Virus genome (UHGV): UHGV-0075096 | Reading direction: 5' to 3' (one strand) | Length of the DNA: 34,787 nt | Source: a virus | Shown: piece by piece, positions 3,807-34,787 of the stretch | How the letters are laid out: every line of letters begins with the position of its first letter | How positions within the stretch are numbered: position 1 is the stretch's first letter | Translations under genes and position numbers: made by a program | The notes under the pieces: generated by a model | Told to the model about the DNA's origin: nothing | The model's database searches: none | The model's input: the letters and a program-made list of their open reading frames with translations, nothing else

Positions 3807-3807
3807 T

Positions 3808-4425: not shown

Positions 4426-4524
4426 TGACACTTCTCGAAACGCGAATTAATCTGGCTCCATATTTCGAATGTTGCCTTATATAACCCTGTATTGCCGTAC
4501 AGGTTAACTTGTGGAGTTTGCCTT
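4426..4524. promoter_or_regulatory. lysis-lysogeny switch region between divergent cI and apl starts
   Basis: 99-bp gap between the divergently oriented cI and apl start codons; in 186/P2 the lytic and lysogenic promoters and operators lie here. Individual -35/-10 elements were not resolved. Confidence 0.45.
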
Positions 4525-4746: not shown

Positions 4747-4776
4747 TCCATCCTACGGATTAGGGAGAGGCAAACA

Positions 4777-7772: not shown

Positions 7773-9790
7773 CGCTGGCAATAAACGAACAATGCTATGC
7801 CGTTGATGCCTGGAGGCGGGAAACTTTCGCACCAGGCACACCGGCAGACGCGACTATCACAGAACGCCGCCTGTGGGCTGTAAACCCGCAGGATTATGAA
7901 TGGCGATCCCGGTACCTGCATGAGATACCCGACTGGTTAGCCGGGTATTTTGGCCGTCGCTATGAAAAGCTTTTTTCTGGCCGTGACGGGCGTCGCCGTG
8001 CCAATACATTCCTGCGCAAAACAATCGGTGAGAATGTATTGCCACGTCTGCGCAAAGTGGCTGCGCGTTACTCGCTGGCCGCTGATGCTGCTGATCTTCC
8101 TTTTGGTAAGTCGCTGGAGCGCTTGCCGTCACTAGACCGTCCTGATCTTAAAAAACTGGCTGGCCAGGTATCTGGCTGGATTTCCCAGTCACTTTATGAC
8201 TTCACCGAACAGTTTGATTCCGGCACTGACGACGCCAGAGAGCTGCATCGCCGCACTCTGGAATCTTACCGCCATCTTTGTGCCTGTTGCCTGATGCTGA
8301 ATAACCAGCCGCCGTACTGGACTGAACATGAGGCCAATGAAGGTCAACTGGAAATGCGTAAGGCGGAATCCGGGATACTGCGCATGATGGCGCCGGAATG
8401 GTGGTACCTGCGTCTTAAACGTGCGCGTGATACGCAGCGCGAGCACATGGCCATTGCGGTGGGACAGGTGCAAAAAGCGGCCAGCGCTTATGTATCCCGC
8501 AAAACACTGGGTGAATGGATAGACCAGAAAAAGCGGAATCTGGAGTTCTTTAAAAAGTTTGATCTGCTGAATGATGAGGGGCTGCGCATTGCACTGGACA
8601 GCATGGTGCACCGCAGCGTTGCAAATCCGGCGATCCGTCGATGTGAACTAATAGTAAGAATGCGAGGGTTTGAAGATATGGCCAATGAAGAAGGGCTGGC
8701 CGGTGAGTTTTACACTATCACCGCGCCATCACGTTTCCATGCGGTTCACAGCAAAGGGGGCTTTGTATCGCAATGGGATGGAAGTACGCCGCAGGATACC
8801 CAGCGCTATTTATGCGGCGTATGGGCAAAAGCGCGTGCAGCGATCTCGCGTGCTGGTATCCATGTATTTGGGTTTCGGGTTGTTGAGCCTCACCATGACG
8901 GGACACCGCACTGGCATATGTTGCTTTTTATGCGTCCGCAGGACGTGGACACGGTACGCGATATTCTTTGTTATCACGCCAGAATTACCGATTCTGAAGA
9001 ACTGCAATCTGAAAAGGCGCTGAAGGCGCGTTTTCATGTTGAAGCTATCGATCCCGCCAAAGGTTCGGCCACGGGCTACATCGCGAAATACATTTCAAAA
9101 AATATTGATGGTTTTGCGCTGGATGGTGAGCAGGACGAAGAAACCGGCGAAAACCTGCGTGATATGGCTAAGTCCGTTTCCGCGTGGGCTTCACGCTGGC
9201 GTATTCGCCAGTTTCAGCAGATTGGTGGTGCGCCGGTAACCGTCTGGCGTGAGCTGCGTCGGTTGCGGGATCAGGTACTGACAGATCGCAGAATGGATGC
9301 GGTTCTGGCCGCTGCTGATGTCGGGGACTGGGCTGCATATACCCAGGCGCAGGGAGGTGCACTGGTTGCCCGCCGTGATCTGGTTGTTCGTCTGGCCTAT
9401 GAAATTACGGAACAGGGCAACGAATACGCGGAGGACGTGCAGCGCGTACAGGGTGTTTATTCTCCTTTGATTCCTGATTCAGAAGTTTGCACCCGTCTGG
9501 TTAAGTGGCAAAAGGTTGCGAAGTTGGCCGAAGCGCCAGCGGAGGCGGGTTTTTCTGGCGGCAACGCCGCCCCTTGGAGTTCTGTCAATAACTGTACGGA
9601 GGGGGGAACCCGCAGACGGTTAAAACTGGAATTACGCAGTCGGGGTTTTGAGGGTTCCGATGAAGAAATAGCCATTCTCCTGCGGGGTAGTGGTTTGATA
9701 TTTGGTCAGGGGGCACTGATTTACCGCAATGGGCGGTTGAAGGAAACACGAAACGAACCATTGCAGGAGCTTTGGCCGGGGTGGTTATAG
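7769..9790 (+). CDS. replication initiation endonuclease (P2 gpA / 186 A family, rolling-circle)
   Basis: 673 aa carrying the paired-tyrosine active-site motif GYIAKYISKN and the HxH-like PHWHMLLF motif; lies last in the early operon as in P2/186. Confidence 0.85.
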   Translation: MTLAINEQCYAVDAWRRETFAPGTPADATITERRLWAVNPQDYEWRSRYLHEIPDWLAGYFGRRYEKLFSGRDGRRRANTFLRKTIGENVLPRLRKVAARYSLAADAADLPFGKSLERLPSLDRPDLKKLAGQVSGWISQSLYDFTEQFDSGTDDARELHRRTLESYRHLCACCLMLNNQPPYWTEHEANEGQLEMRKAESGILRMMAPEWWYLRLKRARDTQREHMAIAVGQVQKAASAYVSRKTLGEWIDQKKRNLEFFKKFDLLNDEGLRIALDSMVHRSVANPAIRRCELIVRMRGFEDMANEEGLAGEFYTITAPSRFHAVHSKGGFVSQWDGSTPQDTQRYLCGVWAKARAAISRAGIHVFGFRVVEPHHDGTPHWHMLLFMRPQDVDTVRDILCYHARITDSEELQSEKALKARFHVEAIDPAKGSATGYIAKYISKNIDGFALDGEQDEETGENLRDMAKSVSAWASRWRIRQFQQIGGAPVTVWRELRRLRDQVLTDRRMDAVLAAADVGDWAAYTQAQGGALVARRDLVVRLAYEITEQGNEYAEDVQRVQGVYSPLIPDSEVCTRLVKWQKVAKLAEAPAEAGFSGGNAAPWSSVNNCTEGGTRRRLKLELRSRGFEGSDEEIAILLRGSGLIFGQGALIYRNGRLKETRNEPLQELWPGWL

Positions 9791-9867
9791 GTGTGCATGT
9801 GTGTGTAACACATTCATTTGTCAGTAGATGGCAGGAAATTAAATTTCACAATTCGTGCTTTAAGGTG

Positions 9868-9887
9868 TACTGTATGTATATCCAGTT
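9868..9887. promoter_or_regulatory. LexA (SOS) box-like operator
   Basis: TACTGTATGTATATCCAGTT matches the E. coli LexA consensus TACTGTATATATATACAGTA at 17 of 20 positions with the CTG-N10-CAG core intact; a TTCACA -35-like hexamer sits at 9845-9850. Confidence 0.55.
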
Positions 9888-9909
9888 ATTTATTGCTTGT
9901 GGGGGCTAA

Positions 9910-10116
9910 ATGGATCTTTTGGAGGCGTCGGCACAGCTGGAACGCATTGAGTTATTGGCCAAAATTGCCCATGTTTACGAAAGTAACCAGAGAGAAAAAA
10001 CAATCGCTTTGGCCTGGATTGGAGAGCTTGCGGGAGAGGTTCGCGAAATGGTTAAAAAGGAAGGGCAACGCCCCCAGAATGGGGGCATTTCAGGCGGCGG
10101 GAGTCGCTTTCAGTAG
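9910..10116 (+). CDS. small SOS-regulated protein, candidate antirepressor (positional analogue of 186 Tum)
   Basis: 68-aa ORF (MDLLEASAQLERIELLAKIAHVYESNQREK...) 23 bp downstream of the LexA-like box and after gene A, where 186 carries LexA-controlled tum. Function inferred from context only. Confidence 0.4.
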   Translation: MDLLEASAQLERIELLAKIAHVYESNQREKTIALAWIGELAGEVREMVKKEGQRPQNGGISGGGSRFQ

Positions 10117-10359
10117 GTCTAATGCCATCTGGCGCTGATCGGGTGAAAGTGCATTCAGTATTTTTTGCACCATCGCATCACCCGTTTTAGCGCTGGGGCT
10201 GAGAGTGTGGGAGAACGTCAGATTCATAACAAACGTGTGGCCACACTCAACATCTGAACAGGCGCAGTAAATATCCGCAATTTGCCGGTGCTTCCTGTTC
10301 GTTTTACGAATAACAGCCTTTGAGCCGCATTCCGGGCATTCGATTTTCAGAACTCGCAT
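10090..10359 (-). CDS. ogr: Ogr/Delta-family zinc-finger late transcription activator
   Basis: From the internal ATG: MRVLKIECPECGSKAVIRKTNRKHRQIADIYCACSDVEC... has the exact C-x2-C-x22-C-x4-C spacing of P2 Ogr / 186 B. Confidence 0.8.
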   Translation of the reverse strand: MRVLKIECPECGSKAVIRKTNRKHRQIADIYCACSDVECGHTFVMNLTFSHTLSPSAKTGDAMVQKILNALSPDQRQMALDLLKATPAA

Positions 10360-10409
10360 ATTCCATGCTCCAGCTGTTAAATGATGCCTGGATTTTAGCC
10401 TGTTTCGCC

Positions 10410-11471
10410 TCATGCCGCACCCTTATCCGTTGATTCTGTGTAACTTAAATCAAAGTTAAGGTGTAGCCTTTCCGGTATTTCGGGATCATTGTTAACGGCC
10501 AGCATAAAACGGCGCTGGATGGGGGCAATTTCGCTTTTCTTGTAAATGCGTTCAGCCTTTTCAACATCCCCCAGTCCGGCAGTGTTCTGCGGGACAATAC
10601 CGGCGAGGCCAGCAGGGAAACGGTGAGCGTTCAGAATGTCCTGGGCGCTGATGTTCTTGATGTTGGCAAATTCATCCTTTGCGGAAATATCCCCCATTTC
10701 AATGAATTTGATGGCGTCGCCGTCTCCACCGGGAATGTTTACAAGGATGGTGGAGAAGTTACCGATCCCTTTGCTGTCACGCAGCTGCTGTTCAATTTCT
10801 TCCTCCATTTCGTCCGTCATGCTGGGATCGCGGGTATAAAGAATACCGCCTGTGTGCGCACCATTGTGGTAATAGCGGCGTCGGAAAATGACCGCTTCAC
10901 TGTTAAGTAACGCGGAATGCACACCGCCTATGTAGTCCGGCAGCCCGTAGATATGCTGTTGCGGGTCATACATTTTGATGAAGATAATATCTTCTTCTGG
11001 CCATACCTGCGGTTCCCCTTCCTGTAACACCACGTAGTCACCAGGCTTATCCAGGGCGTTATCTCTGACTTTGCGGCGGCGAATATACAGACCGGGCAAG
11101 GGTTCAAGTGCGATCACGTCACCCCAGCCGTTACGAATTTTGGCAATCGCAATATCCCCAAAGGTTATATAGTCAAACGCTGCCGCTTCCAGCTGGTCGT
11201 GAATAAGCCCGCCCCCCTGGTAGTCTGAAACAATCATGTTTTTACGGGCGTGAATGATGCCGCCGTGCTGACCGTTAAGATTAATCAGTTGCGCGAGTGC
11301 CAGCCGGTCAATCGGCTGGGTGAAGTGATCGGCGGCATTGTCGTACCAGATATCACGGTAATCTGTGCCGGTAGTCAGAACTGGTTCAGGTTTGCCGAAT
11401 GTGATAATGCTCATCTTTTTTGATTTGTCGCCGCGCTGGTCGCGCTTAACAAAGCGTTTCTTTTTACTCAT
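10410..11471 (-). CDS. portal protein (P2 gpQ homologue)
   Basis: 353 aa, P2 Q-like size and sequence character; start overlaps the end of the terminase gene (11468-11471). Confidence 0.88.
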   Translation of the reverse strand: MSKKKRFVKRDQRGDKSKKMSIITFGKPEPVLTTGTDYRDIWYDNAADHFTQPIDRLALAQLINLNGQHGGIIHARKNMIVSDYQGGGLIHDQLEAAAFDYITFGDIAIAKIRNGWGDVIALEPLPGLYIRRRKVRDNALDKPGDYVVLQEGEPQVWPEEDIIFIKMYDPQQHIYGLPDYIGGVHSALLNSEAVIFRRRYYHNGAHTGGILYTRDPSMTDEMEEEIEQQLRDSKGIGNFSTILVNIPGGDGDAIKFIEMGDISAKDEFANIKNISAQDILNAHRFPAGLAGIVPQNTAGLGDVEKAERIYKKSEIAPIQRRFMLAVNNDPEIPERLHLNFDLSYTESTDKGAA

Positions 11472-13243
11472 GCTGCCTCTTTCCTTACACCCCAGCGGGA
11501 TTTAGGTTTGTTTTCATAATTAAGGGGTTCGTTATGCAGACCGTGGGTAATCGCCCAGAACGCCTCCGCGTGGCCGGTATCCTGGCTGCGGTCAGCGACA
11601 AACGTCATGGCGTTGCCGCTTTGTGTGGTGGTTCGGCGCACAGACATAAAGCTGGCGGCGATCTCTTTCAGGTTTTTATCCCACTCAATACGCTGGCTTT
11701 CCACCACGTCCACCGCTTTCAGTACCAGCTTATTTTTGGTGTTCAGGTCGTAACGAATAGGGACGGCCACGCGCATGGCAAAATGCTGAATGTTGTCAAA
11801 AACACCCTGGCCAATGCCGGTAACGTCCACCCCCAGATATGTGAAGTTGTATTTTTTGAACAACTGCTCGATCTGTTTTGCCTGGTACCGGAAGTTCATG
11901 CCTTTCCAGTAAATCACCTTCAGAACGCGGAACTTCTCCACGGCGAGCATCGGTGGGGCGATGATGACAAAACAGGACAAATCCCCGCTGCGAGCCGGGT
12001 CAAAGCCGCCCCACACTGGCCTGTCACCGAATGGCCGCGCTGCATCTGGGTTGTGATCCTGCCAGGTGTCGATTTCAACGCCGCAGGCTTCCAGGTCGGA
12101 AAAGCTGAAAACGGAATCTTTGCTGTCAACGAACACGCACATATAGAGCATGTTAAAAGTGGCGTCGTTGTAGCGGTTGCGAAGTTTCTCGATGTTCGCC
12201 AGGTTGAAACCGCCCGCAATGGCATCTTCCATCGTAATGACGTAGCGCCATTGCCCATCCGGGCAGAGTCGCCCGCCGTCACGCATTTCGTTAAAGGAAG
12301 GAAACTTAATGGCCGCACGTTTTTTACTGCCCTGTTTCCACTCATCGCCCGTCCAGAACGGGTACGCCTGGTGCGTTTTTGCCGATGGCGTTGAAAAATA
12401 GGTGGTACGCCACTTGTCATGCGTGGCCATTGCGCTGGCCACTTCGTTAAGTTTTGCAAAGTTTGGTACCCAGAAATATTCGTCACAGTACAGGTGGCCA
12501 CTGTAGGACTGGGCGGTGTTTTTGTTGGTGGAGAGAAAACGCAGTTCTGCGCCGTTGCTTAAGCGGATCGGGTTACCGGTCAGCGTAATACCGAAATACT
12601 GCTCTGCAATATTCACGATGTAAGACCGGAACACTTCAGCCTGAGCCTTTGACGCTGACAGAAAGATTTGCGGATCGCCGGTCATCACCGCGTTTTCAAA
12701 CGCTTCAAACGCAAAATACCAGGTCGCACCGATCTGGCGGCTTTTCAGGATATTCCTGACAAGCTGGCCAATGTTATTGCGCAGGTGTTTCTGATATTCA
12801 AAAAGATGTTCCTCAGCCCATGCGTCAAAGTCCTCCTGCGTCAGCGAGGTAATATCGTTTTTCTTGTACTTCCGTTTGCTGCGCGGTTCGTCGTCATTGT
12901 TGTCCCGCGCAGCTGCTTGCCCGGAACTCTGACCGCTGGCCATTTTCTCTTTGTGTTTATTACTCTGCGCACGCAGTTTCGTGGCATGAGCAATGAGCAT
13001 GTCCATTTCTTTCAGGTCGAGATCGGTTTTGTTATCGCGGCTGGCCAGCAGTTGGTAACGGCGTTCAATCGCTTCCTCTGTGCTTTCAAAACTGAGCAAA
13101 TCCGCCCAGCTGTATTTCTCCGCCCAGTAGTAAACGATCCGCGCATTCGGCAGATTTAATTCAGATGCGATTTCCTTTGGCGTATAGCGGCGCAGATAAA
13201 GTGCGCGAACAACGCCTTTTAATTCTTCAGAGTATTTAGCCAT
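11468..13243 (-). CDS. terminase large (ATPase) subunit (P2 gpP homologue)
   Basis: 591 aa (P2 P is 590 aa); divergent from the O-N-M-L operon as in P2. Confidence 0.9.
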   Translation of the reverse strand: MAKYSEELKGVVRALYLRRYTPKEIASELNLPNARIVYYWAEKYSWADLLSFESTEEAIERRYQLLASRDNKTDLDLKEMDMLIAHATKLRAQSNKHKEKMASGQSSGQAAARDNNDDEPRSKRKYKKNDITSLTQEDFDAWAEEHLFEYQKHLRNNIGQLVRNILKSRQIGATWYFAFEAFENAVMTGDPQIFLSASKAQAEVFRSYIVNIAEQYFGITLTGNPIRLSNGAELRFLSTNKNTAQSYSGHLYCDEYFWVPNFAKLNEVASAMATHDKWRTTYFSTPSAKTHQAYPFWTGDEWKQGSKKRAAIKFPSFNEMRDGGRLCPDGQWRYVITMEDAIAGGFNLANIEKLRNRYNDATFNMLYMCVFVDSKDSVFSFSDLEACGVEIDTWQDHNPDAARPFGDRPVWGGFDPARSGDLSCFVIIAPPMLAVEKFRVLKVIYWKGMNFRYQAKQIEQLFKKYNFTYLGVDVTGIGQGVFDNIQHFAMRVAVPIRYDLNTKNKLVLKAVDVVESQRIEWDKNLKEIAASFMSVRRTTTQSGNAMTFVADRSQDTGHAEAFWAITHGLHNEPLNYENKPKSRWGVRKEAA

Positions 13244-13297
13244 GCGGATAATTATGCCGTGGCTGTGATGAAAAAACGGTGGTGTTAATTCGTGTCT

Positions 13298-13322
13298 GTT
13301 CGGTAAAGCGTTATAACCGAAC
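13298..13322. promoter_or_regulatory. dyad-symmetry element in the divergent late-promoter region (candidate Ogr-dependent late promoter of the O operon)
   Basis: 7-bp inverted repeat GTTCGGT-N11-ACCGAAC centred about 95 bp upstream of the O start codon; P2-family late promoters carry an upstream dyad recognised by Ogr/B. Confidence 0.35.
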
Positions 13323-13404
13323 TGTTCAGAATAAAGCGTAATGCGGTGGCGGTTTTATTTGGCAATAATTGATTTGCAGCGTCAGGGAGTGGAACAGGGG
13401 GGAT

Positions 13405-14208
13405 ATGTCACATTTAAAAACTGACTGGCTGTGTGTTGCTACTGAAGGGGATACCGTTGACGGCAGGGTAATTAAACGGCAGTGGATCATTGATATGGGG
13501 GAAACCTATGACTATAGCCACTATGTCGCTTTAATCTGGCCAGAACATGAGGATGATTGCGGGAATTTTGGTGAAGTGCTGGAAGCCACCTGGAATGATG
13601 GTGAAGATGGACTGGCACGGTTATATGTCAGCCTTTGCCCGAATATGCGTCTGATTTTCGCAAATCATGAAGATCAGCTTTTGTTCTTCTCCATTGAGCC
13701 GGAAGAAAACTGGCGCGGTAGCGGGCGTACTTACCTGAAAGGGCTGGCGGTAACAGATACACCTGCCAGCGTTGGCACCACACGGCTGCGCTTTAGTAGT
13801 CGGCGCAATAAATTAACAAAGCAGGGATATTACAGTTGTGTAATTTCCCGTGACGGAAAAATTAAACAGGAAGCAAGAATGAAGAACTGGCAGAAACGGT
13901 TTGGTATTAAGCCAAAGTTTGAAGATGAAACGCCACAGGATAATCCTGCCCCGGATGAAGATAAATTACAGGCGCTTGCCAATGTAGTGAACGATCTGGA
14001 AGCGCGAGTGGCGAAAATTGAAAATCAACTGAATGACGTTCAGGGTGATGTTGACACAATCGCTGAAGTGGTGGATACGCAGGAATTTGCGGCAATCCGC
14101 GATAATGCAAAAGAAATCGTAACCCGCTTTAACGATCTGGGTAATAAAAACACCCGTACACCGGGGCGTACTATTAAAGATAAAGCCGGGAAATTTAATT
14201 TCCTGTAA
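13405..14208 (+). CDS. capsid scaffolding protein (P2 gpO homologue)
   Basis: About 267 aa from the internal ATG (MSHLKTDWLCVATEGDTVDGRVI...); contains the LKGLAVTDTPAS motif also present in P2 O; G-rich RBS. Confidence 0.82.
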   Translation: MSHLKTDWLCVATEGDTVDGRVIKRQWIIDMGETYDYSHYVALIWPEHEDDCGNFGEVLEATWNDGEDGLARLYVSLCPNMRLIFANHEDQLLFFSIEPEENWRGSGRTYLKGLAVTDTPASVGTTRLRFSSRRNKLTKQGYYSCVISRDGKIKQEARMKNWQKRFGIKPKFEDETPQDNPAPDEDKLQALANVVNDLEARVAKIENQLNDVQGDVDTIAEVVDTQEFAAIRDNAKEIVTRFNDLGNKNTRTPGRTIKDKAGKFNFL

Positions 14209-14270
14209 TTCGCTTTATTGCTGATTAGTCCAGAACATATTTTTAAATCGCTTAATTGCGAGGGAGTTTT

Positions 14271-15293
14271 ATGCACCTTAATAATCGTGCGCGGGATTTA
14301 CTGGATAAATACTCGGCGGGGATGGCGCAGCAGTTTGGTGCGCGTGATACCAGTCGATATTTTTCCCTGAATGACCCGCAGGAAAATGCGCTGCGTCTTG
14401 CGCTGCTGGAGTCCGTCGAGTTCCTGAACATGATCACCTGTCTGGATGTTGACCAGCTGAGTGGCCAGGTGATCTCTGTCGGTTCCTCTGTGCTGCATAC
14501 CGGCCGCAGCGAAAATGGCCGTTTCATTCGTCAGGTAGGCGTTGACGGTAATGACTATTCCCTGGTTGAAACAGACAGCTGCGCCGCACTGCGCTGGGAT
14601 CTGCTTTCTGTCTGGGCAAACGCCGGTAAGGACGAAAACGAGTTTTACAACCTGGTACAGGCATTCACCACGCAGGCTTTTGCGCTGGACATGTTGCGCA
14701 TTGGTTTTAATGGTAAGAGCCGGGCGAAAACCACTGATCCGGTAGCAAACCCGAACGGTGAAGATGTGAACATCGGCTGGCATGAGCGTATGAAAACGCT
14801 GCTGGGTGGCAATCAGATTATGACCGATCCCGTGGTGCTCGATGAGGCAGGGGATTACAAGTCACTGGATGCAATGGCGTCTGATCTGATTAACGCCAAA
14901 ATCCCGGCACAGTTCCGCAATGACCCGCGTCTGGTTGTCCTGGTCGGTGCCGATCTGGTCGCTGCTGAACAGTACCGACTGTATCAGGCAGCAGACCGTC
15001 CGACTGAAAAAATTGCTGCGCAGATGCTGGGAAGCACCATTGCTGGCCGTCAGGCCATTATTCCGCCGTTTATGCCGGGTAAACGCATGGTGGTTACGCC
15101 GCTGTCTAACCTGCACATCTACACCCAGCGCAATACCCGTATGCGTAAGGCGGAGTTTGTTGAAGATCGTAAGCAGTTCGAAAACAAATACCTGCGCAAT
15201 GAAGGTTACGCGGTGGAAGTGCCGGAGCTGTATGCGGCCATTGATGAATCCGCTGTGACAATCGGCAAAGTCTCCGAACCGGTGGAGGGCTGA
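14271..15293 (+). CDS. major capsid protein (P2 gpN homologue)
   Basis: About 340 aa from the internal ATG with a GAGGGA RBS; follows the scaffold gene as in P2. Confidence 0.88.
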   Translation: MHLNNRARDLLDKYSAGMAQQFGARDTSRYFSLNDPQENALRLALLESVEFLNMITCLDVDQLSGQVISVGSSVLHTGRSENGRFIRQVGVDGNDYSLVETDSCAALRWDLLSVWANAGKDENEFYNLVQAFTTQAFALDMLRIGFNGKSRAKTTDPVANPNGEDVNIGWHERMKTLLGGNQIMTDPVVLDEAGDYKSLDAMASDLINAKIPAQFRNDPRLVVLVGADLVAAEQYRLYQAADRPTEKIAAQMLGSTIAGRQAIIPPFMPGKRMVVTPLSNLHIYTQRNTRMRKAEFVEDRKQFENKYLRNEGYAVEVPELYAAIDESAVTIGKVSEPVEG

Positions 15294-15296
15294 TAA

Positions 15297-16001
15297 ATGG
15301 CACTTTCCCCCGCGCAGCGTCACAGCCAGCGTATTGCAATGGAACAAAAGCTGAAGCGCAGCCAGGCACTGGAAACCGCGGAAAGTATGCACCTGCTGAT
15401 CAGGGCGCTGGAAACGGATGTGGAACACGTTCGAAGTCTGCCTACCATCGCCGATCGCGTCGAGTATAAACGCGATGTGCTGTTGCCGCGCTGGGTTCCC
15501 ACTGTGGAAGCCTATCTGGAGAGTGGCCAGGTGTATGCAAATCCGGTTTTCGCCTGGTGTGTTATCTGGCTGTTTGACGTGGGCGATCTGGATAAGGCGC
15601 TGGACTGGGCTGACATTGCTATCAGCCAGCAGCAGGCAACCCCGGATCGGTTACGCAGCAATTTTCCCACTTTCGTGGCGGATACGATGCTGGCATGGGC
15701 GCAGGAAACCGCAGGGCGTGGGGAAAGTGTGGAGCCTTATTTCACCCGCACGTTTGAGCGGGTGGCAAACACCTGGCGACTGCATGAGCAAGTGACGGCC
15801 AAATGGTTCAAGTTTGCTGGTCAGGAGTTGCTACGCAATGACGATGGCCAGAAAACGGCGGCGGGCGTGGATGATATTGAAACGCTGGAAAAGGCCGATC
15901 AGCTGCTGGCTATTGCAGAAAAACACTACTCAAAAATTGGCGTCAGAACGGCACGGCAGACGATTGCCGCTCGCATCCGAAAATTGACAACACAAGGATA
16001 A
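15297..16001 (+). CDS. terminase small (endonuclease) subunit (P2 gpM homologue)
   Basis: 234 aa, third gene of the O-N-M-L head operon. Confidence 0.82.
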   Translation: MALSPAQRHSQRIAMEQKLKRSQALETAESMHLLIRALETDVEHVRSLPTIADRVEYKRDVLLPRWVPTVEAYLESGQVYANPVFAWCVIWLFDVGDLDKALDWADIAISQQQATPDRLRSNFPTFVADTMLAWAQETAGRGESVEPYFTRTFERVANTWRLHEQVTAKWFKFAGQELLRNDDGQKTAAGVDDIETLEKADQLLAIAEKHYSKIGVRTARQTIAARIRKLTTQG

Positions 16002-16007
16002 CAACAA

Positions 16008-16154
16008 ATGAAAGAAAGCCATTTACAAGGTGCACATACCCATACCGTGGGGGCACATAGCCATTCTCTGGGTGGTGCACATACCCATACCGTGGGTGCA
16101 CATAGCCATTCTCTGAGTGGTGCACATACGCACACTTTTAATACTGAGCAGTAA
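16008..16154 (+). CDS. His-rich repeat micro-protein (48 aa, 12 His)
   Basis: Hand translation: MKESHLQGAHTHTVGAHSHSLGGAHTHTVGAHSHSLSGAHTHTFNTEQ; AAGGA RBS 8 nt upstream of the ATG; built on a 45-bp tandem repeat; below the track cutoff. Confidence 0.4.
   Translation: MKESHLQGAHTHTVGAHSHSLGGAHTHTVGAHSHSLSGAHTHTFNTEQ
16029..16136 (+). repeat. 45-bp tandem direct repeat, about 2.4 copies
   Basis: Unit GGTGCACATACCCATACCGTGGG(G/T)GCACATAGCCATTCTCTG(G/A)GT; copies differ at 2 positions; in frame with the micro-ORF. Confidence 0.85.
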
Positions 16155-16250
16155 ACGACTACCGCAAGCCAGGCGGACGCGGTGGAGGGCAGAACACCTT
16201 GTGTGTAACTGCGCCGTGGAAACCGGCCAGTCCGCCTTTTCGGGGGATTT

Positions 16251-16703
16251 ATGTTTAGCGGAAAGCCGCTGGATTATCAGGATGAACCGCTGACCAATAA
16301 CGGATTCTGGCCAGACCTGAATCTGAAGGATTTTCAGGCGCAGCGGTCACTACCGCCAGATATTGACGCTGACACCATCAGCCAGGCGCTACTTGCGGCG
16401 GTGGCGGAGGTGAATGCGGAGCTGGAAAACGTGGAAGCCAGCTGGAAAGCGAAAGGCAACACGCTGGCGGCAGAGGTACCAGGCGTAAAAATGGGCGGAC
16501 TGAACAGCCTGTGCGCCCAGTATATGAAGGCCGTTTTTGCCAGGGCAAAAGCGGATCTGCTGGGGGAGTTTGCCACCATCGGGCGGCGTGATACCCATCC
16601 GGGACAGGAAAGCATGGAAACCCGTGCGGGGTTACTGGCTGAAGCATCGGTGGTGATCCGCCGTATGAAAGGGCTGAAACGGGCAACGGTGAAAAAAGTA
16701 TGA
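16251..16703 (+). CDS. head completion/stabilisation protein (P2 gpL homologue)
   Basis: 150 aa, last gene of the head operon. Confidence 0.75.
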   Translation: MFSGKPLDYQDEPLTNNGFWPDLNLKDFQAQRSLPPDIDADTISQALLAAVAEVNAELENVEASWKAKGNTLAAEVPGVKMGGLNSLCAQYMKAVFARAKADLLGEFATIGRRDTHPGQESMETRAGLLAEASVVIRRMKGLKRATVKKV

Positions 16704-26725: not shown

Positions 26726-27312
26726 TGACTTTTAAAATGAGTGAAACCGATCAAGCAGTTACTGTTTATAACCTGCGTTCCGACACGAATGAGTTTATTG
26801 GTTCGGGGGACGCTTTTATTCCCGCACATACCGGACTGCCAGCCAACTGCACCACAATAAAACCACCGGTAATCAAAGCAGGGTTTGTGGCAATTTTTGA
26901 TTCAGAGAAGCAAAGATGGATTTCCCGTGAGGATCATCGTGGCGAGGTGGTGTTTGATACAGAAAACGGTAATGAACTGGTGATCACCGAGCCAGGCGCT
27001 TACCCGGAAGGGACAACCACGTTAGCACCGGCTAATGCCTGGCAAAAATGGAATGGTAAGGCGTGGGTGGATGATGCGGAGGCCATGCGAATTGCATTAG
27101 TCAGCGAGGCAGACGCCGAAAAGAAAAGACTGCTTAAACAGGCCAATGACGCCATTGCCACATTGCAGGATGCCGTTGATTTAGACATGGCAACCGAAGA
27201 AGAAGCATTGCTGCTTACCGCATGGAAAAAATACCGCGTTTTACTGAATCGTATTCAACCGGAAGATGCGCCAGAAATTGTGTGGCCGGAGGTGCCTGGA
27301 AATGTGGCGTGA
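26725..27312 (+). CDS. tail fibre assembly protein (Tfa; P2 gpG-like)
   Basis: 195 aa ending with the motif typical of Tfa chaperones (WKKYRVLLNRIQPEDAPEIVWPEVP); directly downstream of the fibre gene. Confidence 0.8.
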   Translation: MTFKMSETDQAVTVYNLRSDTNEFIGSGDAFIPAHTGLPANCTTIKPPVIKAGFVAIFDSEKQRWISREDHRGEVVFDTENGNELVITEPGAYPEGTTTLAPANAWQKWNGKAWVDDAEAMRIALVSEADAEKKRLLKQANDAIATLQDAVDLDMATEEEALLLTAWKKYRVLLNRIQPEDAPEIVWPEVPGNVA

Positions 27313-28027
27313 AGCACGTCTGGCCTTCACGGATTCAGTTGCTGCGCTGAACTGTTCGATCGTCCCTGCGCATCCGTGGATTTATGGGCTGGGACAGCAG
27401 ACAGCGAACGGGGCATATCTCAGCCCGGTTAATGCCGTTCGCTATCTTGCTGAACGCCTGGCCGGAACAGGGGGGAATGCGGATGTGGTGATTATGATGG
27501 TCACCGGACAGACGCAGGAAAACTTTATGGCCAGCCTGAATAACCTGGTCGGGATTTTCCCCGCCCCGGCATTCACGCAGGTCAAACGGCTGGCGCAATC
27601 CGCCGCAGTGCTGGCTATTGAAAAGATGCAGATTCCGGCGAAAACCGCCGCTGCGTTACCTGCGTCCATTCCGCTGTCTGTATCAACCAGCAGGGCAGCT
27701 TTATCTGCTGCGGCAATCAGCCAGGCACAAAAGGCGGCGGGTGCCGGGTTTGATATCGAAGGGCTGAAAAAACAGCTGGGCGAGTTCACGCAACTGCGTG
27801 ACCAGCTTATCAGTGATGTGGCCAGCGGCCTGAATGATTTACAGGGGAAGAGTGCCAGAGCGTGGGTTTTTACTGCCAGCGGAGACACCGGCACCACGTT
27901 ACTGGAACTGGTGAAGGACATTCCGCAGCAGTCTGCCGTTTACACCGCAGCCATGATGCTGGTTGGCGATAATCTTGATGGAATAAAGGGAATGATTCAT
28001 GACTTCGATCCCGACACTGGCGCTTAA
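27302..28027 (+). CDS. hypothetical protein (241 aa) downstream of Tfa
   Basis: Internal ATG with a GGAGG RBS; Ala-rich; no family recognised by eye; occupies the position corresponding to the P2 Z/fun cargo locus. Confidence 0.5.
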   Translation: MWREARLAFTDSVAALNCSIVPAHPWIYGLGQQTANGAYLSPVNAVRYLAERLAGTGGNADVVIMMVTGQTQENFMASLNNLVGIFPAPAFTQVKRLAQSAAVLAIEKMQIPAKTAAALPASIPLSVSTSRAALSAAAISQAQKAAGAGFDIEGLKKQLGEFTQLRDQLISDVASGLNDLQGKSARAWVFTASGDTGTTLLELVKDIPQQSAVYTAAMMLVGDNLDGIKGMIHDFDPDTGA

Positions 28028-28544
28028 TGGCGAGGCTATCCAGCTGAAAAACATGCGGGTGACTGTTTCACAGCAATTTCAGGATAAAGATCAGTCCGGC
28101 CAGACCAGCGCCACAACAAAATCAGAGCAGGGAGCAAAGGGAAAGGAACTGCGGATCAGCGGTGAAATACCTTTTAAACAGCCTGAAATACTGAAGCGTA
28201 TTTTTGAGCTTGCCAGCGCTACCGATGCCAGTGGTAATCGTCAAAAGTACCGTGTGGCGCATGAAGTTGCCCGTGCTGTTAATTTTCGTGAAGCAACGTT
28301 CAGCGGAATGCTGGATGCACCCCAGCAGGACGGGAAAATGTCCTGGCTGGTGACGTTCACACTGGCGGAACATATCAGCGTGCAGGAAAAGCGAGAGGCC
28401 AGAGCAACAGGTAAGACGACCGCAAAAAAACAGACTGCCGGTAGTGCGGGACAGGCCGGTGGCCAGTCTGCCGGAGAAGATGAAGAAAAACTGACGTGGT
28501 TTGAACGCAAGGTGCTGAAGCCCGTCAATGATGCTTTGGGTTAA
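27999..28544 (+). CDS. hypothetical tail-associated protein (181 aa)
   Basis: ORF coupled to the downstream hub/spike gene (TAATG overlap); start uncertain because it overlaps the upstream gene by 29 nt. Confidence 0.45.
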   Translation: MTSIPTLALNGEAIQLKNMRVTVSQQFQDKDQSGQTSATTKSEQGAKGKELRISGEIPFKQPEILKRIFELASATDASGNRQKYRVAHEVARAVNFREATFSGMLDAPQQDGKMSWLVTFTLAEHISVQEKREARATGKTTAKKQTAGSAGQAGGQSAGEDEEKLTWFERKVLKPVNDALG

Positions 28545-30247
28545 TGATGAAACCAGTAAAACGCCTTTACCTTTCAACGGATGAAGTTCACCTGGTGGAT
28601 GCCAGCCTGGTACTGGAGCTGAACAGCTGCGGCCGGGGCTTCATCACCGCAGAGACAACAACCGATTACACCGGAAAACTGGTGCGGCTGGATGTAGGGT
28701 ATACCGATCTGCTTTTGCGCTGGTTTACGGGGTACGTGGAGCGATCGCAGCCCGCAGAAAACGGTTTTCAGCGTCTGTTCATTCGTGAGCTGGTAGGTGT
28801 GTTTGAAAGGATGTGGCCGTGCTCATTTCAACATCCAACTTTACGCGAGGTTGCCAGCTGGCTGGAAGAAAACAGTGGTATCTCGGTCAGTGTGCCTGAT
28901 GCACAGTACAGCGATACCCCCATCCCACATTTTACCCATAACGGTACCGGCTATCAGTTGCTGAACAATCTGGGAAGGGCGTTCAGTATCCAGGATTACA
29001 TCTGGTACCAGTTGCCTGATGGTTCGCTTTACGTCGGTGGCGCAGAAAAGTCACTGTTTGCCGGTCGTCCCGTAGAAATCCCGTCAGAGTTCAGCCAGGG
29101 GGCTGCTGGTGGTAACTCTGTGACATTACCAGTGATCCAGACTATGCGGCCAGGGGTGGAGATGAACGGTGAACGCGTGACTAAAGTTCACCTGACTAAT
29201 GACACGATGGCGATCACATGGACGCCGAGAAACCGCGCAACGGGTAAACCTTTGCAGAAAACACCGGCGCAACGGCAGATTGAAAGCCATTACCCGGAAC
29301 TGGCATCCGGGCTTCATTTGCCAAAGACGGCCAGAGTCGTGGCGCATTCAGAGCCAGTAAAAAGCGGTAACTTTGCCGATCCCTTCCGGCCACGTTACGC
29401 CGTGGACGTGCAACTGCTTGACGCAGACGGAAACCCGGACAATCAGACGCCTGTTTACTCAGCGGTGCCGCTGCCGGTACCAATGGCCGGGAATGATTCA
29501 GGTATGTTTCAGTTCCCGCCTGAAGGGACGCTGGTTGAGGTCGCATTCACAGGAGGCAGACCGGATAAACCCTTTATCAGGCAGACGCTGCCGGATGGCA
29601 CCAGTCTGCCGGACGTTAAACCCGGTGAGCAATTACAGCAGCAGCGGGAAGAAGTATCCCTGAGGGTGACTCAGGCGGGTGACTGGGTAAGGCAGACCGA
29701 TCAGACCATCAGCGAAACATCAATGGTGCGAACCGTAAAAGCCGATACAGAACAGCGCGAACTGGTCAGCCGTGAAACCACGGTGAAAGCCACGGATAAA
29801 ACCACGGTACTGGGAACCGCCACATTGCTGGCCGGAGCCATCCAGCAGGTAAGCGCCGGTGATTATAGCCAGGCGGTGAAAGGTAACAGGCTGGCCAGTA
29901 TTGAAGGAAACGAAGAAACGGACATAGCAGGACAGCAGTCCACTAAAGTGGGCGGTGCTGTAGCCGTGGAGGTTGGCGAAAGTCTGACAGAGAAGATTGC
30001 CGCACTGCGTAAATCAGTGGCTGCTGGCGGTCAGCAGGTCATGGGGGCAACTGTCCATATTGGCAGTGAGAGCATCAACGCCCTGACCATGATGCTGGAT
30101 ACCATTGATTTACTGGCAGAGCTTGCGCAGCAATGCGCGAACCATTCGCACCCCACCGTTGGAACTCCAACCAATGCCGCCGCGTTCACACTGACGGCGA
30201 CGAAAGCCGGGCAGACCCGGAGCAAATACCAGAATATAATTGCCTGA
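28544..30247 (+). CDS. putative baseplate hub/central spike protein (gpD/gpV-like)
   Basis: 567 aa, last gene of the tail module and followed by a strong terminator; the C-terminal region contains CANHSHPTVG (an HxH motif as in spike apex domains). Assignment is inferred from position and motifs. Confidence 0.45.
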   Translation: MMKPVKRLYLSTDEVHLVDASLVLELNSCGRGFITAETTTDYTGKLVRLDVGYTDLLLRWFTGYVERSQPAENGFQRLFIRELVGVFERMWPCSFQHPTLREVASWLEENSGISVSVPDAQYSDTPIPHFTHNGTGYQLLNNLGRAFSIQDYIWYQLPDGSLYVGGAEKSLFAGRPVEIPSEFSQGAAGGNSVTLPVIQTMRPGVEMNGERVTKVHLTNDTMAITWTPRNRATGKPLQKTPAQRQIESHYPELASGLHLPKTARVVAHSEPVKSGNFADPFRPRYAVDVQLLDADGNPDNQTPVYSAVPLPVPMAGNDSGMFQFPPEGTLVEVAFTGGRPDKPFIRQTLPDGTSLPDVKPGEQLQQQREEVSLRVTQAGDWVRQTDQTISETSMVRTVKADTEQRELVSRETTVKATDKTTVLGTATLLAGAIQQVSAGDYSQAVKGNRLASIEGNEETDIAGQQSTKVGGAVAVEVGESLTEKIAALRKSVAAGGQQVMGATVHIGSESINALTMMLDTIDLLAELAQQCANHSHPTVGTPTNAAAFTLTATKAGQTRSKYQNIIA

Positions 30248-30259
30248 CCATGATAACAC

Positions 30260-30282
30260 GCCCGCATAATGCGGGCTTTTTT
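30260..30282 (+). terminator. rho-independent terminator of the tail operon
   Basis: GCCCGCA-TAA-TGCGGGC hairpin followed by TTTTTT, 13 bp after the stop at 30247. Confidence 0.85.
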
Positions 30283-30692
30283 ATACCCTTCTCCAGACGC
30301 AGCAGAACGCACCCTCAGCACTTTAGGCAACAAATTAACCCAACTCAACACACATAAAAGATCGTGCGCATGGCGCTGCGTTGGCGCGACGATGCACCGA
30401 CAAAATAAATCTTTCGCAGACAAAAACGGCGCTACACCGCACCCGCCTGCGGTTTCTGGATCTGGAAAATTTTTCTGTTTTATTTTTCTACAAAACAGAC
30501 CGCCAGACCGCGCCGCTGCTGGCGGCTTTGCGGAGAACTGAAACTGAAATGATTGAAAAGGATTTCACTTTTTTTCAGTGAAAAGGATCTGTGAAGGATC
30601 GATGGGAAAATATAACTATCAGAATATAAAAGAGAAATTGAATTTTAGGTGGCGTTTGTGGATCGTTAGTTAAAGGGGGGGGGATATTCTGT

Positions 30693-30763: not shown

Positions 30764-31480
30764 TTACTTTAAACTGAGTTTAAAATTTTTGAATTTACCA
30801 TACAGGGTATCGCGTACAGAAAAGGAAGGAACCCAATTGAATCCTGTTCGCCATGGGCGAGGACTACCGTGAAAGCATACAACTGAAACATCATCAGGAA
30901 CTTTGCCAGTAGCATAATCTGATGCCAAGTCAGGGTTGTAACCTATCATTTTACGTGTGGCTATATGGCATTTGTAACTAACAACAGATCCGGGAATTAT
31001 ATCTTGCCACAATACAGGTTTCATGACGCTACCCAGAAACCCCTGATCACCCCATTTATCTTCTGTTTGGCATTCATGCATATTTTTTTCGGGGTCAGTC
31101 CAGAACGCATCCCAAACATATTGTTTGATAGACGCAGGAATGAACATAATGGATGAGTTAACCCTGGAAGGGTGGTTAAACTCCCGCAGCATAGTGAACT
31201 CTTTCGCCGCATCAAAGATTTTGATATCACCAGTTATGACAACATCAACGTCAAAATAAAGCAGATCCTTATCACCTATTACCGGATGGTTTGGATTAAA
31301 AAGCTCAATCTTAGACCACCAACCTGGAAGGTTGTGCATTAACGGTGCGGTTTCAACACCAGGGATACTTCCAGCATCAGTTAAGCAAATTGAAGGTATG
31401 CCTTTAAATTGGCTATGCAGCCATTGTGCGTGTTTGGGGGTAAATTCTTTACCGCATTTAAGGACGGATACAATCAGCAT
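30764..31480 (-). CDS. putative GT-A fold glycosyltransferase (GT8-like motifs)
   Basis: 238 aa; DxD-type motif (LLYFDVDVVITGD) and a C-terminal H-x2-G-x2-(K/R)-P-W motif (FHGSPRPW) characteristic of retaining GT8 enzymes; GC visibly lower than the prophage core. Confidence 0.45.
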   Translation of the reverse strand: MLIVSVLKCGKEFTPKHAQWLHSQFKGIPSICLTDAGSIPGVETAPLMHNLPGWWSKIELFNPNHPVIGDKDLLYFDVDVVITGDIKIFDAAKEFTMLREFNHPSRVNSSIMFIPASIKQYVWDAFWTDPEKNMHECQTEDKWGDQGFLGSVMKPVLWQDIIPGSVVSYKCHIATRKMIGYNPDLASDYATGKVPDDVSVVCFHGSPRPWRTGFNWVPSFSVRDTLYGKFKNFKLSLK

Positions 31481-31660
31481 ATGGGAATCCCATTCTTTAG
31501 AGCAATAGTGTGCATTTTTTGAACATCGGCAATACTAAAATAAATAGTCAGGGCATAATTTTCTTAGGTAAGAGTCATGATGCCTCATGCCATTCCTTAC
31601 GTAAAGCTAGGCAGACTCAGCATAATGAGGGGACAAAAAGGGGACGCTGACCACTACAAA

Positions 31661-31689
31661 CAAAAAAGCCACTCCGTCAGAAGTGGCTT
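31661..31689 (-). terminator. rho-independent terminator (minus strand)
   Basis: On the minus strand, AAGCCACT-N8-AGTGGCTT hairpin followed by TTTTTT. Confidence 0.6.
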
Positions 31690-31843
31690 AATTATATGAT
31701 TATAAAGCTAAAATTTGGTGGCCCCTTGGACTTGAACCAGCGCCCGGGCGATTATAAGTCTTATGGTGTAACCTTTTGATATTTATATATAAATTTTATT
31801 TTTATGTGAATTTTAAGGATCTCTAACCGCTTTATTTTTGGCT

Positions 31844-31874
31844 AAAAAACCCGCAGTTGTAGCAATGATGCGGG
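31844..31874 (-). terminator. rho-independent terminator closing the minus-strand cargo operon
   Basis: On the minus strand, CCCGCA...TGCGGG hairpin followed by TTTTTT (plus-strand A6 at 31844-31849); about 220 bp downstream of the last long ORF. Confidence 0.55.
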
Positions 31875-32093
31875 TTGAGTTAGTCTTTAAAACTGAAATT
31901 GATCAGCCATAGCGTTCATAGGTAGCTGCGTATGCATTAACGTTTTTTAGGTGGTGGGGCTACTTGCTGCGTTTGCTGCGTTTGCCGTGGTGGTTGATAA
32001 CCATTGTTCTGCTGATTTGGCCTACTTGATGGTTGATATCCCTCATTTATAGGTTGCCAGCCATCATATTTAGTATTGTTTGCCGGTTTTTCT

Positions 32094-32744
32094 TCAGCCA
32101 TTTTTTACCTCACTATTGTTGGGAGAATGTAATTTTACCTCAATAAACTCAACACTTTCTATTTCATTAGTCAATATTATTATGCCTAATGTATCAGCTA
32201 GTTCGTGATCGAAATCGCCATTCTCATCAAGCGCCCAATGTTTCTCAAGATAGATTTGTTCGGGTTCTGGACTATTGGATGCAAATGAGTCACTTCCATA
32301 AAAACCACCATATTTTTTACCGTTTTTTAGTGTTACCAATACCCAGCAGCGTTGTCTGGTTGAGAAGAAGTAGTCCCAAGAGCGCCCTATAGGGTGTGGA
32401 AGAATATTTTTGACTTTTTCCCAGTTACGAATTTTTAGCAATGCAACAGGTAATAGTACAGGTATTACAATTAAAACTAAAAAGTAAAAAATGTAATATA
32501 AAATAGGGTGTTTCAAAAAAATGTCATTTGTTTCAATTAGATAAATTGGTATTAAAAGAAATGAAAAATTTATGCAACTATATGAAACAACGTCAATTAA
32601 AACTTTTGATGTATCCAAATCAATTGATGGGTGAAATAGTCTGTAAACTCTCATGCTGATAAATCCGGGCATAATGAACAGTACAAATAAAAACAATTTC
32701 CCCTTCTCTAAAATGTCCATTTTAATTCCTTTTGCATAAATCAA
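32094..32744 (-). CDS. uncharacterised membrane protein (3 predicted TM helices plus a roughly 100-aa soluble C-terminal domain)
   Basis: 216 aa; hydrophobic segments [26 protein letters not shown] and [20 protein letters not shown]; its ATG overlaps the upstream stop in an ATGA coupling; AT-rich codon usage. Confidence 0.6.
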
Positions 32745-33766
32745 TCATCTTTATTCATCAAATCATGGTGATATCCACAAACACCTCCAAAATCTTGTTC
32801 GTCTTGGGAAAGTGTTGTGCCACATATATAACATTCATTATAGTCAACTTCATAACCACACCACCGACATTTTTGCTCAGCTAGAATAAATGTATCATGG
32901 TTACAGTTAAAACATTCTTCATAAGTCGGTTCATCGCCATCAGGAGGCCAATAAAAAAACTCATCTTCAAAAACCTGCATAAGCAAAGGCGTAAATAAAT
33001 TGATATTCCCGCATGCAACGCACAAATACTTAAAATCGCTTTCAAAATCTTCTACTGTCAGACCTTCTTCTAAACTATCTTGTGAGGCTTTTATAAGTTT
33101 AGAACCACATTTATCGCAGCAACATTCGGGTAAAAATTCCATCATGCCTTCTGGAATACCTGCATACTCCCATGTTGACCTACACTCATATAATTTCGAA
33201 TTATAAAAAGTTTTGTGTTCCAGCATTGTACTCCAGGAACTGCCTAAAACATCTTGTGGAATTTTATCAAGTTCATTTGTTATGAAACTTTCAAGAACTG
33301 GAAATAAATCGGCGACAAAACCAGCAAGCTCGCCGAAAGTGTTTTGAGGATGTAAGTGTTCAAGATGATTTCGGCAATCCTGAAGTTTTTCAATGGCTGG
33401 CCAATCAACTTTTATGTTGAATTTATGAAAGCGCTCCTTTATGCCACAAACATCAATAGTCGATTTTTTAAACTTTCCTTCAGGTTTCCATTCTACCCCA
33501 CCTTTCCCATCGGGGTGGGGAAGCATTTTAGACGGTGGGTTATGTATTAGCACATACGCATGCTCAGGCGTGTCAACAGATTTGGCGATTTTATATTTGA
33601 ATAGTAATAATAAACCAGCGTAAAGATTACGTATGGATGAAAGAGTTCGCAATGAGTTATCAGGTTGTTGGGATAACTGGAAATCTTCAATCCCAAGTTG
33701 TATTGAAGCAATTGCGTTGTCATATAACTTATCCGCATCTAAGGTTAGTGAGGTTGTGTTACTCAT
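32741..33766 (-). CDS. uncharacterised protein with C-terminal multi-CxxC zinc-ribbon-like region
   Basis: 341 aa; C-terminal third contains CCCDKC, CVAC, CFNC, CRWC, CYIC and CGYHH; N-terminal domain contains an R-N-x3-H motif (RNHLEH); AAGGA RBS. Confidence 0.6.
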
Positions 33767-33840
33767 TGTTTGCTCTATCCTTAGTAAATAAAGTTGGATT
33801 ACATATTATGAAAAAAAGTTGGTGCATTCAATCAGTCATT

Positions 33841-34737: not shown

Positions 34738-34787
34738 GTAGGTGTCTCCTGACTTTTGGCTACAAATTATCACATTTTAGAGAAAGT

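Follow-up and report, generated by a model that had tools for sequence, protein, structure and literature searches.

UHGV-0075096, a virus genome of 34,787 nucleotides that is referred to below in its whole length as the window, is a stretch of an Escherichia coli chromosome carrying a P2-family prophage. The left flank of the prophage holds the chromosomal genes ompX, opgE, and mntS, and mntR lies just past the right end of the window; these two E. coli genes, mntS and mntR, enclose the prophage. The element begins at its left end with int (2766-3806, minus strand), followed by cI, cox, cII, several small early genes, a gene for a Dam-type methylase, and the replication gene A (7769-9790). 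Downstream of A come a small open reading frame (ORF), a gene for a zinc-finger protein of the Ogr/Delta type, and then Q and P on the minus strand, after which a plus-strand gene string runs unbroken from O (13369) to the end of a baseplate hub/spike gene (30247). We are highly confident that this part of the window represents, in intact form, the late region (virion and lysis genes) of an E. coli prophage belonging to the HP1 subgroup of Peduoviridae, a close relative of the Quadragintavirus phages ev015, ev040, and ev129, and that its gene order is ancestral and not the outcome of local recombination.

The rightward string opens with the head genes O, N, M, and L, with a mini-ORF lying between the last two, and continues with R, S, sheath, and tube. 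The lysis genes for holin, endolysin, and Rz/Rz1 come next and are followed by chaperone and tape measure, by DUF2590, J, I, fibre, and Tfa (tail fibre assembly), and finally by orf33, orf34, and the hub-spike gene. The initial annotation, made from the sequence alone, had listed the genes of this region in this very order, and Pfam, PHROG, and PDB sequence matches recover every one of them. It had given the region the span 13244-30247, within which the listed genes do exist, except that Q and P fall outside these coordinates; it had also missed the 48-aa ORF between M and L (16008-16154), and a probable frameshift extension of the chaperone is to be added. The names sheath, tube, and W are assigned here by position and by membership in HP1-type families: the three genes are present, as had been claimed, but they do not belong to the P2 families Phage_sheath_1, Phage_tube, and GPW_gp25.

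The two leftward head genes encode the portal protein Q (10410-11471, minus strand; Pfam Phage_portal) and the large terminase subunit P (11468-13243, minus strand; Pfam Terminase_6N, Terminase_6C, and Terminase_5). On the plus strand, they are answered by the scaffold/protease O (13369-14208; Phage_GPO), the P2-family major capsid protein N (14256-15293; Phage_cap_P2, E=1e-98), the small terminase subunit M (15297-16001; Phage_term_smal), and the head completion protein L (16251-16703; Phage_GPL). Q is 49%, 44%, and 33% identical to its counterparts in HP1, K139, and P2, respectively; in the same order, the values are 51%, 51%, and 42% for P, 34%, 34%, and 29% for O, 33%, 49%, and 27% for N, 40%, 39%, and 30% for M, and 39%, 41%, and 31% for L. 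In bit score per residue, every head gene ranks HP1 and K139 about equally first, Pseudomonas phage phi3 next, and P2 last. With Q and P running leftward, O, N, M, and L running rightward, and the P2-family Pfam matches falling in order, the head block is that of the HP1 subgroup.

All the tail and baseplate genes lie on the plus strand. The first is an R-like tail completion or terminator protein (16700-17206; Pfam P2_Phage_GpR, E=5e-23; PHROG 65), followed by an S-like tail completion or neck protein homologous to HP1 orf22 (17203-17910; PHROG 26, E=7e-33), whose match to Pfam Phage_tail_S reaches 23.4 bits and stays under the cut-off of 24.3. The contractile sheath is of the HP1 type (17907-19034; Pfam DUF2586, E=2e-135; PHROG 907, "tail sheath") and is 52% identical to HP1 orf23; a search of PDB sequences with it returned no match. 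The tail tube is likewise of the HP1 type (19031-19486; Pfam Phage_HP1_Orf24, E=8e-64). Beyond the lysis genes lies the tail assembly chaperone (20608-20868; Pfam Phage_TAC_10, E=7e-37). Frame translations show that the -1 frame of the chaperone gene is open to 21059, overlapping the ATG of the tape-measure gene, and that a slippery site A_AAA_AAC is located at 20859-20865; by analogy with E/E' of P2, we infer that the chaperone has a -1 frameshift extension (20608-21059). The tape-measure protein (21056-23023; Pfam PhageMin_Tail) is followed by a baseplate protein of the DUF2590 family that takes the place of P2 W and is a homologue of HP1 orf28 (23002-23349; DUF2590, E=1e-45), sharing 60% identity with its HP1 counterpart.

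The J-like baseplate protein (23292-24530; Pfam Baseplate_J), the I-like baseplate protein (24517-25110; PHROG 1228, with a weak match to Pfam Tail_P2_I), the tail fibre (25121-26725; Pfam Phage_tail_fib and Collar), and Tfa (26725-27312; Pfam Caudo_TAP) come next. The homologue of HP1 orf33 (27266-28027; PHROG 1677), presumably a baseplate component, is 29% identical to the HP1 protein and has no Pfam or PDB sequence match. It precedes a baseplate complex protein of the HP1 ORF34 family (27999-28544; Pfam HP1_ORF34, E=4e-54) and a homologue of HP1 orf35, the baseplate hub or central spike, which combines an OB fold with a gp5-type beta-helix (28544-30247; PHROG 2258). Residues 413-508 of the latter match the C-terminal helix of T4 gp5 (E=4.5e-7), the match to VgrG is weak, and so are the Pfam matches to Phage_base_V and Gp5_C. 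The HP1 subgroup is recognised by tail proteins of the HP1 and not the P2 type (PMC10612066, Table 2), and DUF2586, Phage_HP1_Orf24, DUF2590, and HP1_ORF34 are all present in the window.

The lysis cassette (19496-20624, plus strand) occupies the interval between tube and chaperone. It begins with a holin of the P2 gpY family (19496-19798; Pfam Phage_holin_3_2), which is 54% identical to P2 Y and has no match in HP1 or K139. It is followed by an endolysin of the Peptidase_M15_4 type (19785-20126; Pfam), the start of which is taken from the ev015 annotation within a frame that is open from 19668. An Rz-like i-spanin (20126-20464; PHROG 1152, E=8e-35) is overlapped by an embedded Rz1/LysC-like o-spanin (20436-20624; Pfam LysC, E=2.5e-6); the start of the latter at 20436 also follows the ev015 annotation, the frame being open from 20325. 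HP1 and K139 have Phage_holin_2_3 holins and Phage_lysozyme endolysins (Pfam) in this place, so that the position of the lysis slot is conserved while its content is not. Judging by these family assignments, the cassette has been exchanged in situ within an HP1-type slot.

The closest known relatives of the late region are Escherichia phages. Positions 10000-30600 of the window align with Escherichia phage ESSI2_ev015 (ev015) at 96.2% nucleotide identity over 98% of the length, and ev040 and ev129 are similar: all three have the same late genes in the same order at 96-97% nucleotide identity, and most late proteins are 97-100% identical. ev015 is classified in Peduoviridae, genus Quadragintavirus. 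The late region is also found, at a coverage of at least 80%, in 26 of 5426 complete E. coli genomes. Its layout is the canonical one of an established group of phages, and its sequence is almost the same as that of phages on deposit. This E. coli-type late region is carried as well by a 20-kb contig with the label "MAG: Bacillota bacterium" (JAEWTL010000126.1), which has a sheath 99% identical to that of the window and is most likely mis-binned.

The same order is annotated in five genera of Peduoviridae: Quadragintavirus (ev015), Hpunavirus (HP1), Longwoodvirus (K139), Seongnamvirus (ESSI-2), and Phitrevirus (Pseudomonas phi3). When the proteins of the window were compared by tblastn one by one with ev015, ESSI-2, HP1, K139, and phi3, the matches were strictly collinear, their coordinates rising monotonically. 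Cronobacter phage ESSI-2 has late proteins 55-88% identical to those of the window, save for the C-terminal half of its fibre, which has no match, and its Tfa, which matches partially; its nucleotide identity is 76% over 54% of the query. It shares the holin of the P2-Y type and the position of ogr, but belongs to a different genus, its holin is only 58% identical, and its fibre C-terminus and Tfa differ. HP1 of Haemophilus and K139 of Vibrio have an identical late order from Q/P to orf33, orf34, and the hub, and share the HP1-type families of sheath, tube, DUF2590, and ORF34, a lysis slot that separates tube from chaperone, the ogr-like genes beside Q, and a cos site past the hub gene. Their proteins are 29-60% identical to those of the window, their holin and endolysin families differ, and K139 has two additional small ORFs (orf23 and the DksA-like orf26).

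One genome per bacterial species was scanned with an alignment of five HP1-type sheaths as the query, which returned 80 loci. Exactly this order was found in about 68 of them, among others in Salmonella, Enterobacter, Kluyvera, Erwinia, Xenorhabdus, Photorhabdus, Providencia, Morganella, Yersinia, Aeromonas, and Haemophilus; the departures consist of truncation of the locus or of lysis and Tfa genes that are not homologous. Phage records with this sheath number 76, and each of them is a genome of 29-39 kb from a phage of Gammaproteobacteria. The resemblance to the HP1/K139 order that had been noticed at the outset is borne out by both the annotated records and tblastn. The idea that the order is unusual, which was to be abandoned if synteny comparison showed it to be the standard of a well-characterised group, does not hold, since the same arrangement is standard in the HP1 subgroup. 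The location of ogr between A and Q had been pointed out as a further oddity; the position is real, but it too is standard in the group, being found in K139 (orf13), ESSI-2, ev015, and, as an unannotated ORF, HP1.

The order quoted for P2 by the initial annotation agrees with the annotated P2 record. P2 (Peduovirus) shares with the window the order and orientation of the head block (Q and P against O, N, M, and L) at 27-42% identity, along with gpR, Baseplate_J, the gpY-type holin, the Tfa C-terminus, the Ogr/Delta family, and DUF3850. It differs in having the lysis genes between L and R, the sheath and tube genes after the fibre genes, a separate spike gene V, ogr beside attP, and cos beside Q. 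Its late genes form four operons, (P Q), (O N M L X lysis R S), (V W J I H G), and (FI FII E T U D), whereas the window apparently has two. The late region of the window is not of the P2 type: the order is different, Phage_sheath_1, Phage_tube, GPW_gp25, and Phage_GPD, all of which P2 has, do not occur among the window proteins, and the P2 families of sheath, tube, W, D, U, and X are not detectable in them.

Similarity to P2 ends sharply after L. The head proteins are related to those of P2 at the level given above, while R, S, sheath, tube, chaperone, tape measure, DUF2590, J, I, the fibre N-terminus, orf33, orf34, and hub gave no P2 match in tblastn or pairwise phmmer searches. The same tail proteins match phages of the HP1 group at 25-63% identity, three of them lacking a match in one or two of HP1, K139, and phi3. 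A profile of five HP1-type sheaths aligned by hhalign with P2 FI gave a probability of 0.06, a value that indicates no relation but leaves room for remote homology given that the profile is shallow (Neff 2). Within the HP1 group, tail proteins are conserved at least as much as head proteins: against HP1, the sheath is 52%, the tube 59%, DUF2590 60%, J 50%, and I 57% identical, as compared with 33-51% for the head proteins.

Modular recombination with another myovirus lineage had been proposed from this picture. The discontinuity after L relative to P2 is real, but recombination in this element is not supported, given the heads closer to HP1/K139, the absence of a break between L and R, and the wide distribution of the order. 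Judged from the comparisons, the different order and the non-P2 tail families are in all likelihood ancestral features common to the whole HP1 subgroup and not an event in this element. The loss of the P2 signal in the tail fits an old split of the tail module, since tail conservation in the HP1 group is no lower than head conservation. This agrees with published work. HP1-like phages have been described as having six capsid genes in P2 order, tail genes without P2 similarity, and cos adjoining attP (Lavigne et al. 2009, PMC2771037), and prophages whose structural genes are HP1/K139-like have been described from E. coli (Nilsson et al. 2011, PMC3448106). Tail proteins have served to define the HP1 and P2 subgroups, the former of which includes Seongnamvirus (Hardies et al. 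2023, PMC10612066). The discrepancy between head and tail in their relation to P2 is an old, subgroup-wide property that is already in the literature (PMC2771037; PMC10612066). What is left of the recombination proposal is a hypothesis on the old origin of the whole subgroup and not a trait of this locus.

Where the two tail types come from at depth is a separate matter. According to one explanation, at the split of the HP1 and P2 subgroups one lineage took up a much older paralogous contractile-tail module; it concerns the deep origin only, is compatible with the ancestral order argued for here, and has about an even chance of being right. It has been proposed on the basis of HHpred comparisons and a timetree that one subgroup gained a much older paralogue of the tail module (Hardies et al. 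2023, PMC10612066), and it accords with a tail that is conserved in the HP1 group as well as or better than the head, yet leaves the head alone detectable in P2, with the low sheath-profile probability against FI, and with the difference in Pfam families (DUF2586, HP1_Orf24, and DUF2590 versus Phage_sheath_1, Phage_tube, and GPW_gp25). On the other hand, R, J, and I still share their Pfam families with the corresponding P2 proteins, a donor lineage would have to be postulated, the sheath profile is shallow, and accelerated divergence combined with rearrangement could yield the same picture.

Slightly less probable is a gradual divergence of one ancestral tail, in which the genes drifted so far apart that BLAST no longer detects them, and internal rearrangement moved the blocks of lysis genes, F operon, and ogr. 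Both phage types have the same functional inventory (completion proteins, sheath, tube, frameshifted chaperone, tape measure, J, I, fibre, Tfa, and hub/spike), and the families of R, J, and I common to both speak for such a course, but the tail evolves no faster than the head in the HP1 group, and a uniform clock would leave it detectable in P2.

A recent hybrid, in which this very prophage joined a P2-type head to the tail and lysis module of another myovirus lineage, is very improbable, even though P2 similarity does stop after L and the genes from R to the hub, save for the Tfa C-terminus, are without P2 match. The prophage is not such a recombinant because its head genes are closer to HP1/K139 than to P2 and because nucleotide identity to ev015 remains at 97-98% on either side of the L|R junction (16700), the dips lying elsewhere. 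Head and tail share their nearest relatives, and there is no breakpoint at 16700; discordant relatives are limited to the P2-like holin, Tfa C-terminus, and DUF3850. Moreover, the same combination of head and tail in the same order is found in the five genera and in about 68 other genomic loci, and none of the loci in the scan pairs this tail with another head type. An assembly or binning artefact fusing two unrelated phage fragments can practically be dismissed, as the same contiguous arrangement occurs in isolated phage genomes and in the 26 complete E. coli chromosomes.

Recent mosaicism does exist in the ancestrally ordered HP1-type prophage on a smaller scale. Identity to ev015 dips at five places: in int-cI-cox (2766-4800; 73% or less, or unaligned), at the junction of the methylase gene and A (7500-8100), in a 180-nt stretch before ogr, in the scaffold gene (13500-14100; 73-77% at the nucleotide level), and at the fibre tip (26100-26700; 69-87%). 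O is 76% identical to its ev015 counterpart at the amino acid level, as compared with 97-100% for its neighbours, and the remaining late region is 95-100% identical to ev015. The C-terminus of Tfa is 44% identical to P2 G, and a short stretch of its gene is 93% identical in DNA to the TfaE gene of an Erwinia phage. The dips mark recent patchwise exchange within the genus. As far as sequence comparison can tell, recent mosaicism is confined to small slots: the lysis cassette, the scaffold gene, Tfa together with the tip of the fibre, the gap between M and L, int-cI-cox, and the cargo.

In ICTV practice, about 70% nucleotide similarity delimits a genus and 95% a species. By nucleotide identity, the prophage clearly belongs to Quadragintavirus at the genus level. 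Outside the late region, the early region is 86-93% identical to ev015 in nucleotide sequence, and ev015 differs from the window in int, cI, and cox, in O, in a divergent fibre tip, in the ORF of its M|L gap, which is unrelated, and in its cargo. Two facts count against a close assignment to the deposited phages: no record is identical to the window, and int, cI, and cox are only 57-70% identical to those of ev015. Because of the latter, the prophage may be a separate species of Quadragintavirus.

The presumed activator of the late genes is the Ogr/Delta-type zinc-finger protein encoded at 10090-10413 on the minus strand (Pfam Ogr_Delta, E=9e-20), between A and Q and directly downstream of Q on the same strand. 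It is 100% identical to its counterpart in ev015, 91% in ESSI-2, 57% in K139 (orf13), and 41% in an unannotated ORF of HP1. The latter, an Ogr/Delta-like frame on the minus strand of HP1 (NC_001697, 10417-10709) between the T31 terminator and Q, seems to be split, with a CxxC motif in one frame and the second Cys pair in the other; this reflects either a sequencing error or a real frameshift.

In the divergent promoter region between P and O lies a perfect dyad, TTCGGTAAAGCGTTATAACCGAA (TTCGG-N13-CCGAA; 13299-13321), a candidate late activator site. No other exact copy exists in the window; degenerate ones are no more frequent than expected by chance, and none of them lies in a late intergenic gap. 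Of 67 related loci, 39 have the dyad, with a 13- or 14-nt spacer, between P and O, and nine more are one base off. A conserved -10-like element CAATAAT/CAATACT is located about 40-45 nt downstream of the dyad, and a mirror-image CATAAT-like element is found on the P side. The P2 late-promoter consensus TGT-N12-ACA was considered as the operator and rejected: a scan gave 6 matches versus 8.5 expected, and none in the late intergenic regions. The dyad is not described in the literature that was found, in a search that did not include the original HP1 and K139 genome papers.

From conservation and position, the dyad is probably the late activator site of HP1-type phages, distinct from TGT-N12-ACA. 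A leftward unit comprising P and Q (and ogr) and a rightward 17-kb gene string from O to the hub diverge from it, which suggests two divergent late operons. In this model, the Ogr/Delta activator encoded beside Q would act on the single P-O dyad and turn on both divergent late units, the rightward one of which would provide the proteins of head, neck, tail, and baseplate as well as those for lysis; in P2, this is the task of four Ogr-dependent operons. Three points tell against such a role of the dyad. About 19 of the 67 loci are without a recognisable full dyad, although most of these keep the right half-site ATATCCGAA; a scan of 9.7-29.7 kb for sigma-70 promoters and terminators was uninformative, as promoters were fewer than in shuffled sequences and terminators equalled them; and the evidence is of two kinds, conservation and position.

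The dyad also occurs outside complete prophages. In eight Xenorhabdus species (L033, L036, L037, L038, L041, L044, L080, and L086), an HP1-type tail cluster spans about 7000-21100 of each locus in the order ogr, dyad, R, sheath, tube, chaperone, tape measure, DUF2590, J, I, fibre, Tfa, orf33, orf34, and hub, without head, S, or lysis genes. The exact dyad, located about 230 nt upstream of R, is found in L033, L036, L037, L044, and L086, and is absent from L038, L041, and L080. Wherever the locus reaches far enough, the clusters are preceded by the same chromosomal genes: a major facilitator superfamily (MFS) transporter gene in all eight, and genes for GNAT acetyltransferases, a DUF535 protein, and a flavin mononucleotide (FMN) oxidoreductase in most. 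Judging by its gene content, the cluster looks like a domesticated HP1-type tailocin. The known xenorhabdicin locus xnp1 has been described as P2-like, with CI, GpA, and GpW (PMC8855722, PMC13280938), from which the present cluster may differ.

The gap between M and L of the window holds a mini-ORF of 48 aa (16008-16154, plus strand), MKESHLQGAHTHTVGAHSHSLGGAHTHTVGAHSHSLSGAHTHTFNTEQ, composed of GAH(T/S)H(T/S) repeats and lying on a 45-nt tandem repeat. It matches Pfam Phage_fiber ("phage tail fibre repeat") with 25.2 bits against a cut-off of 20. Phage ESSI2_ev129 and other E. coli prophages have frame-preserving versions of 53 and 61 aa, most relatives are without any ORF at this spot, and the ORF that ev015 has in this gap is 66 aa long. 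The peptides of the mini-ORF have no exact match in a collection of 15 billion proteins. This His-x-His repeat mini-protein may be a functional accessory virion or fibre-related peptide. That the dyad is an undescribed Ogr-type operator of the whole HP1 subgroup, that O to hub form one operon, that the Xenorhabdus unit is a domesticated tailocin, and that the His-repeat mini-protein is a functional accessory, all at once, is doubtful.

The ends of the element were approached through related genomes. The public record of ESSI2_ev015 (NC_049395.1) opens with 48 nt (positions 1-48) that include a Nextera transposase adapter, TCGTCGGCAGCGTCAGATGTGTATAAGAGACAG. With the adapter removed, the ends of the record map to positions 30436-30439 of the window, downstream of the hub gene, which gives the approximate location of cos and of the packaged-genome ends. 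As far as the record of this relative indicates, cos lies past the tail genes and not beside the portal gene, as in the HP1 subgroup. Because of this mapping, a 90-aa ORF (30269-30541) straddles cos. In the window itself, no direct att repeats of at least 16 nt flank the prophage. The neighbouring chromosome of E. coli strain Combat13F7 pointed to a weak candidate for the att core, GCTATATTATA(A/T)AGC, of 11 nt (15 of 16 nt when extended), located at about 2667 and about 134 nt beyond the window end (about 34921). At this site, Combat13F7 (NZ_CP019245) retains what a deletion has left of the same prophage, and the right arm of this remnant is 100% identical to the window. An Rfam scan of the whole window gave no family at the gathering score.

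Between cos and attR, a cargo block of low G+C content (34-46%) lies on the minus strand (30764-34773). It encodes a 238-aa ORF, a DUF6338 protein (32094-32744), a candidate defence protein assigned by PADLOC to PDC-S64 (32741-33766, E=2.5e-47), and a 310-aa ORF. In ev015, the same interval holds an acetyltransferase gene and three hypothetical genes.

As a discovery, the late region matters little, being a textbook HP1-like peduovirus layout with 96% identity to a coliphage that has already been classified. In about half of the family, an order that seems mosaic by the standard of P2 is the usual one, and the check is useful as a calibration. The conserved late-promoter dyad could merit a short follow-up in work on the regulation of P2-family phages, and so could the headless Xenorhabdus tail cluster in tailocin work.

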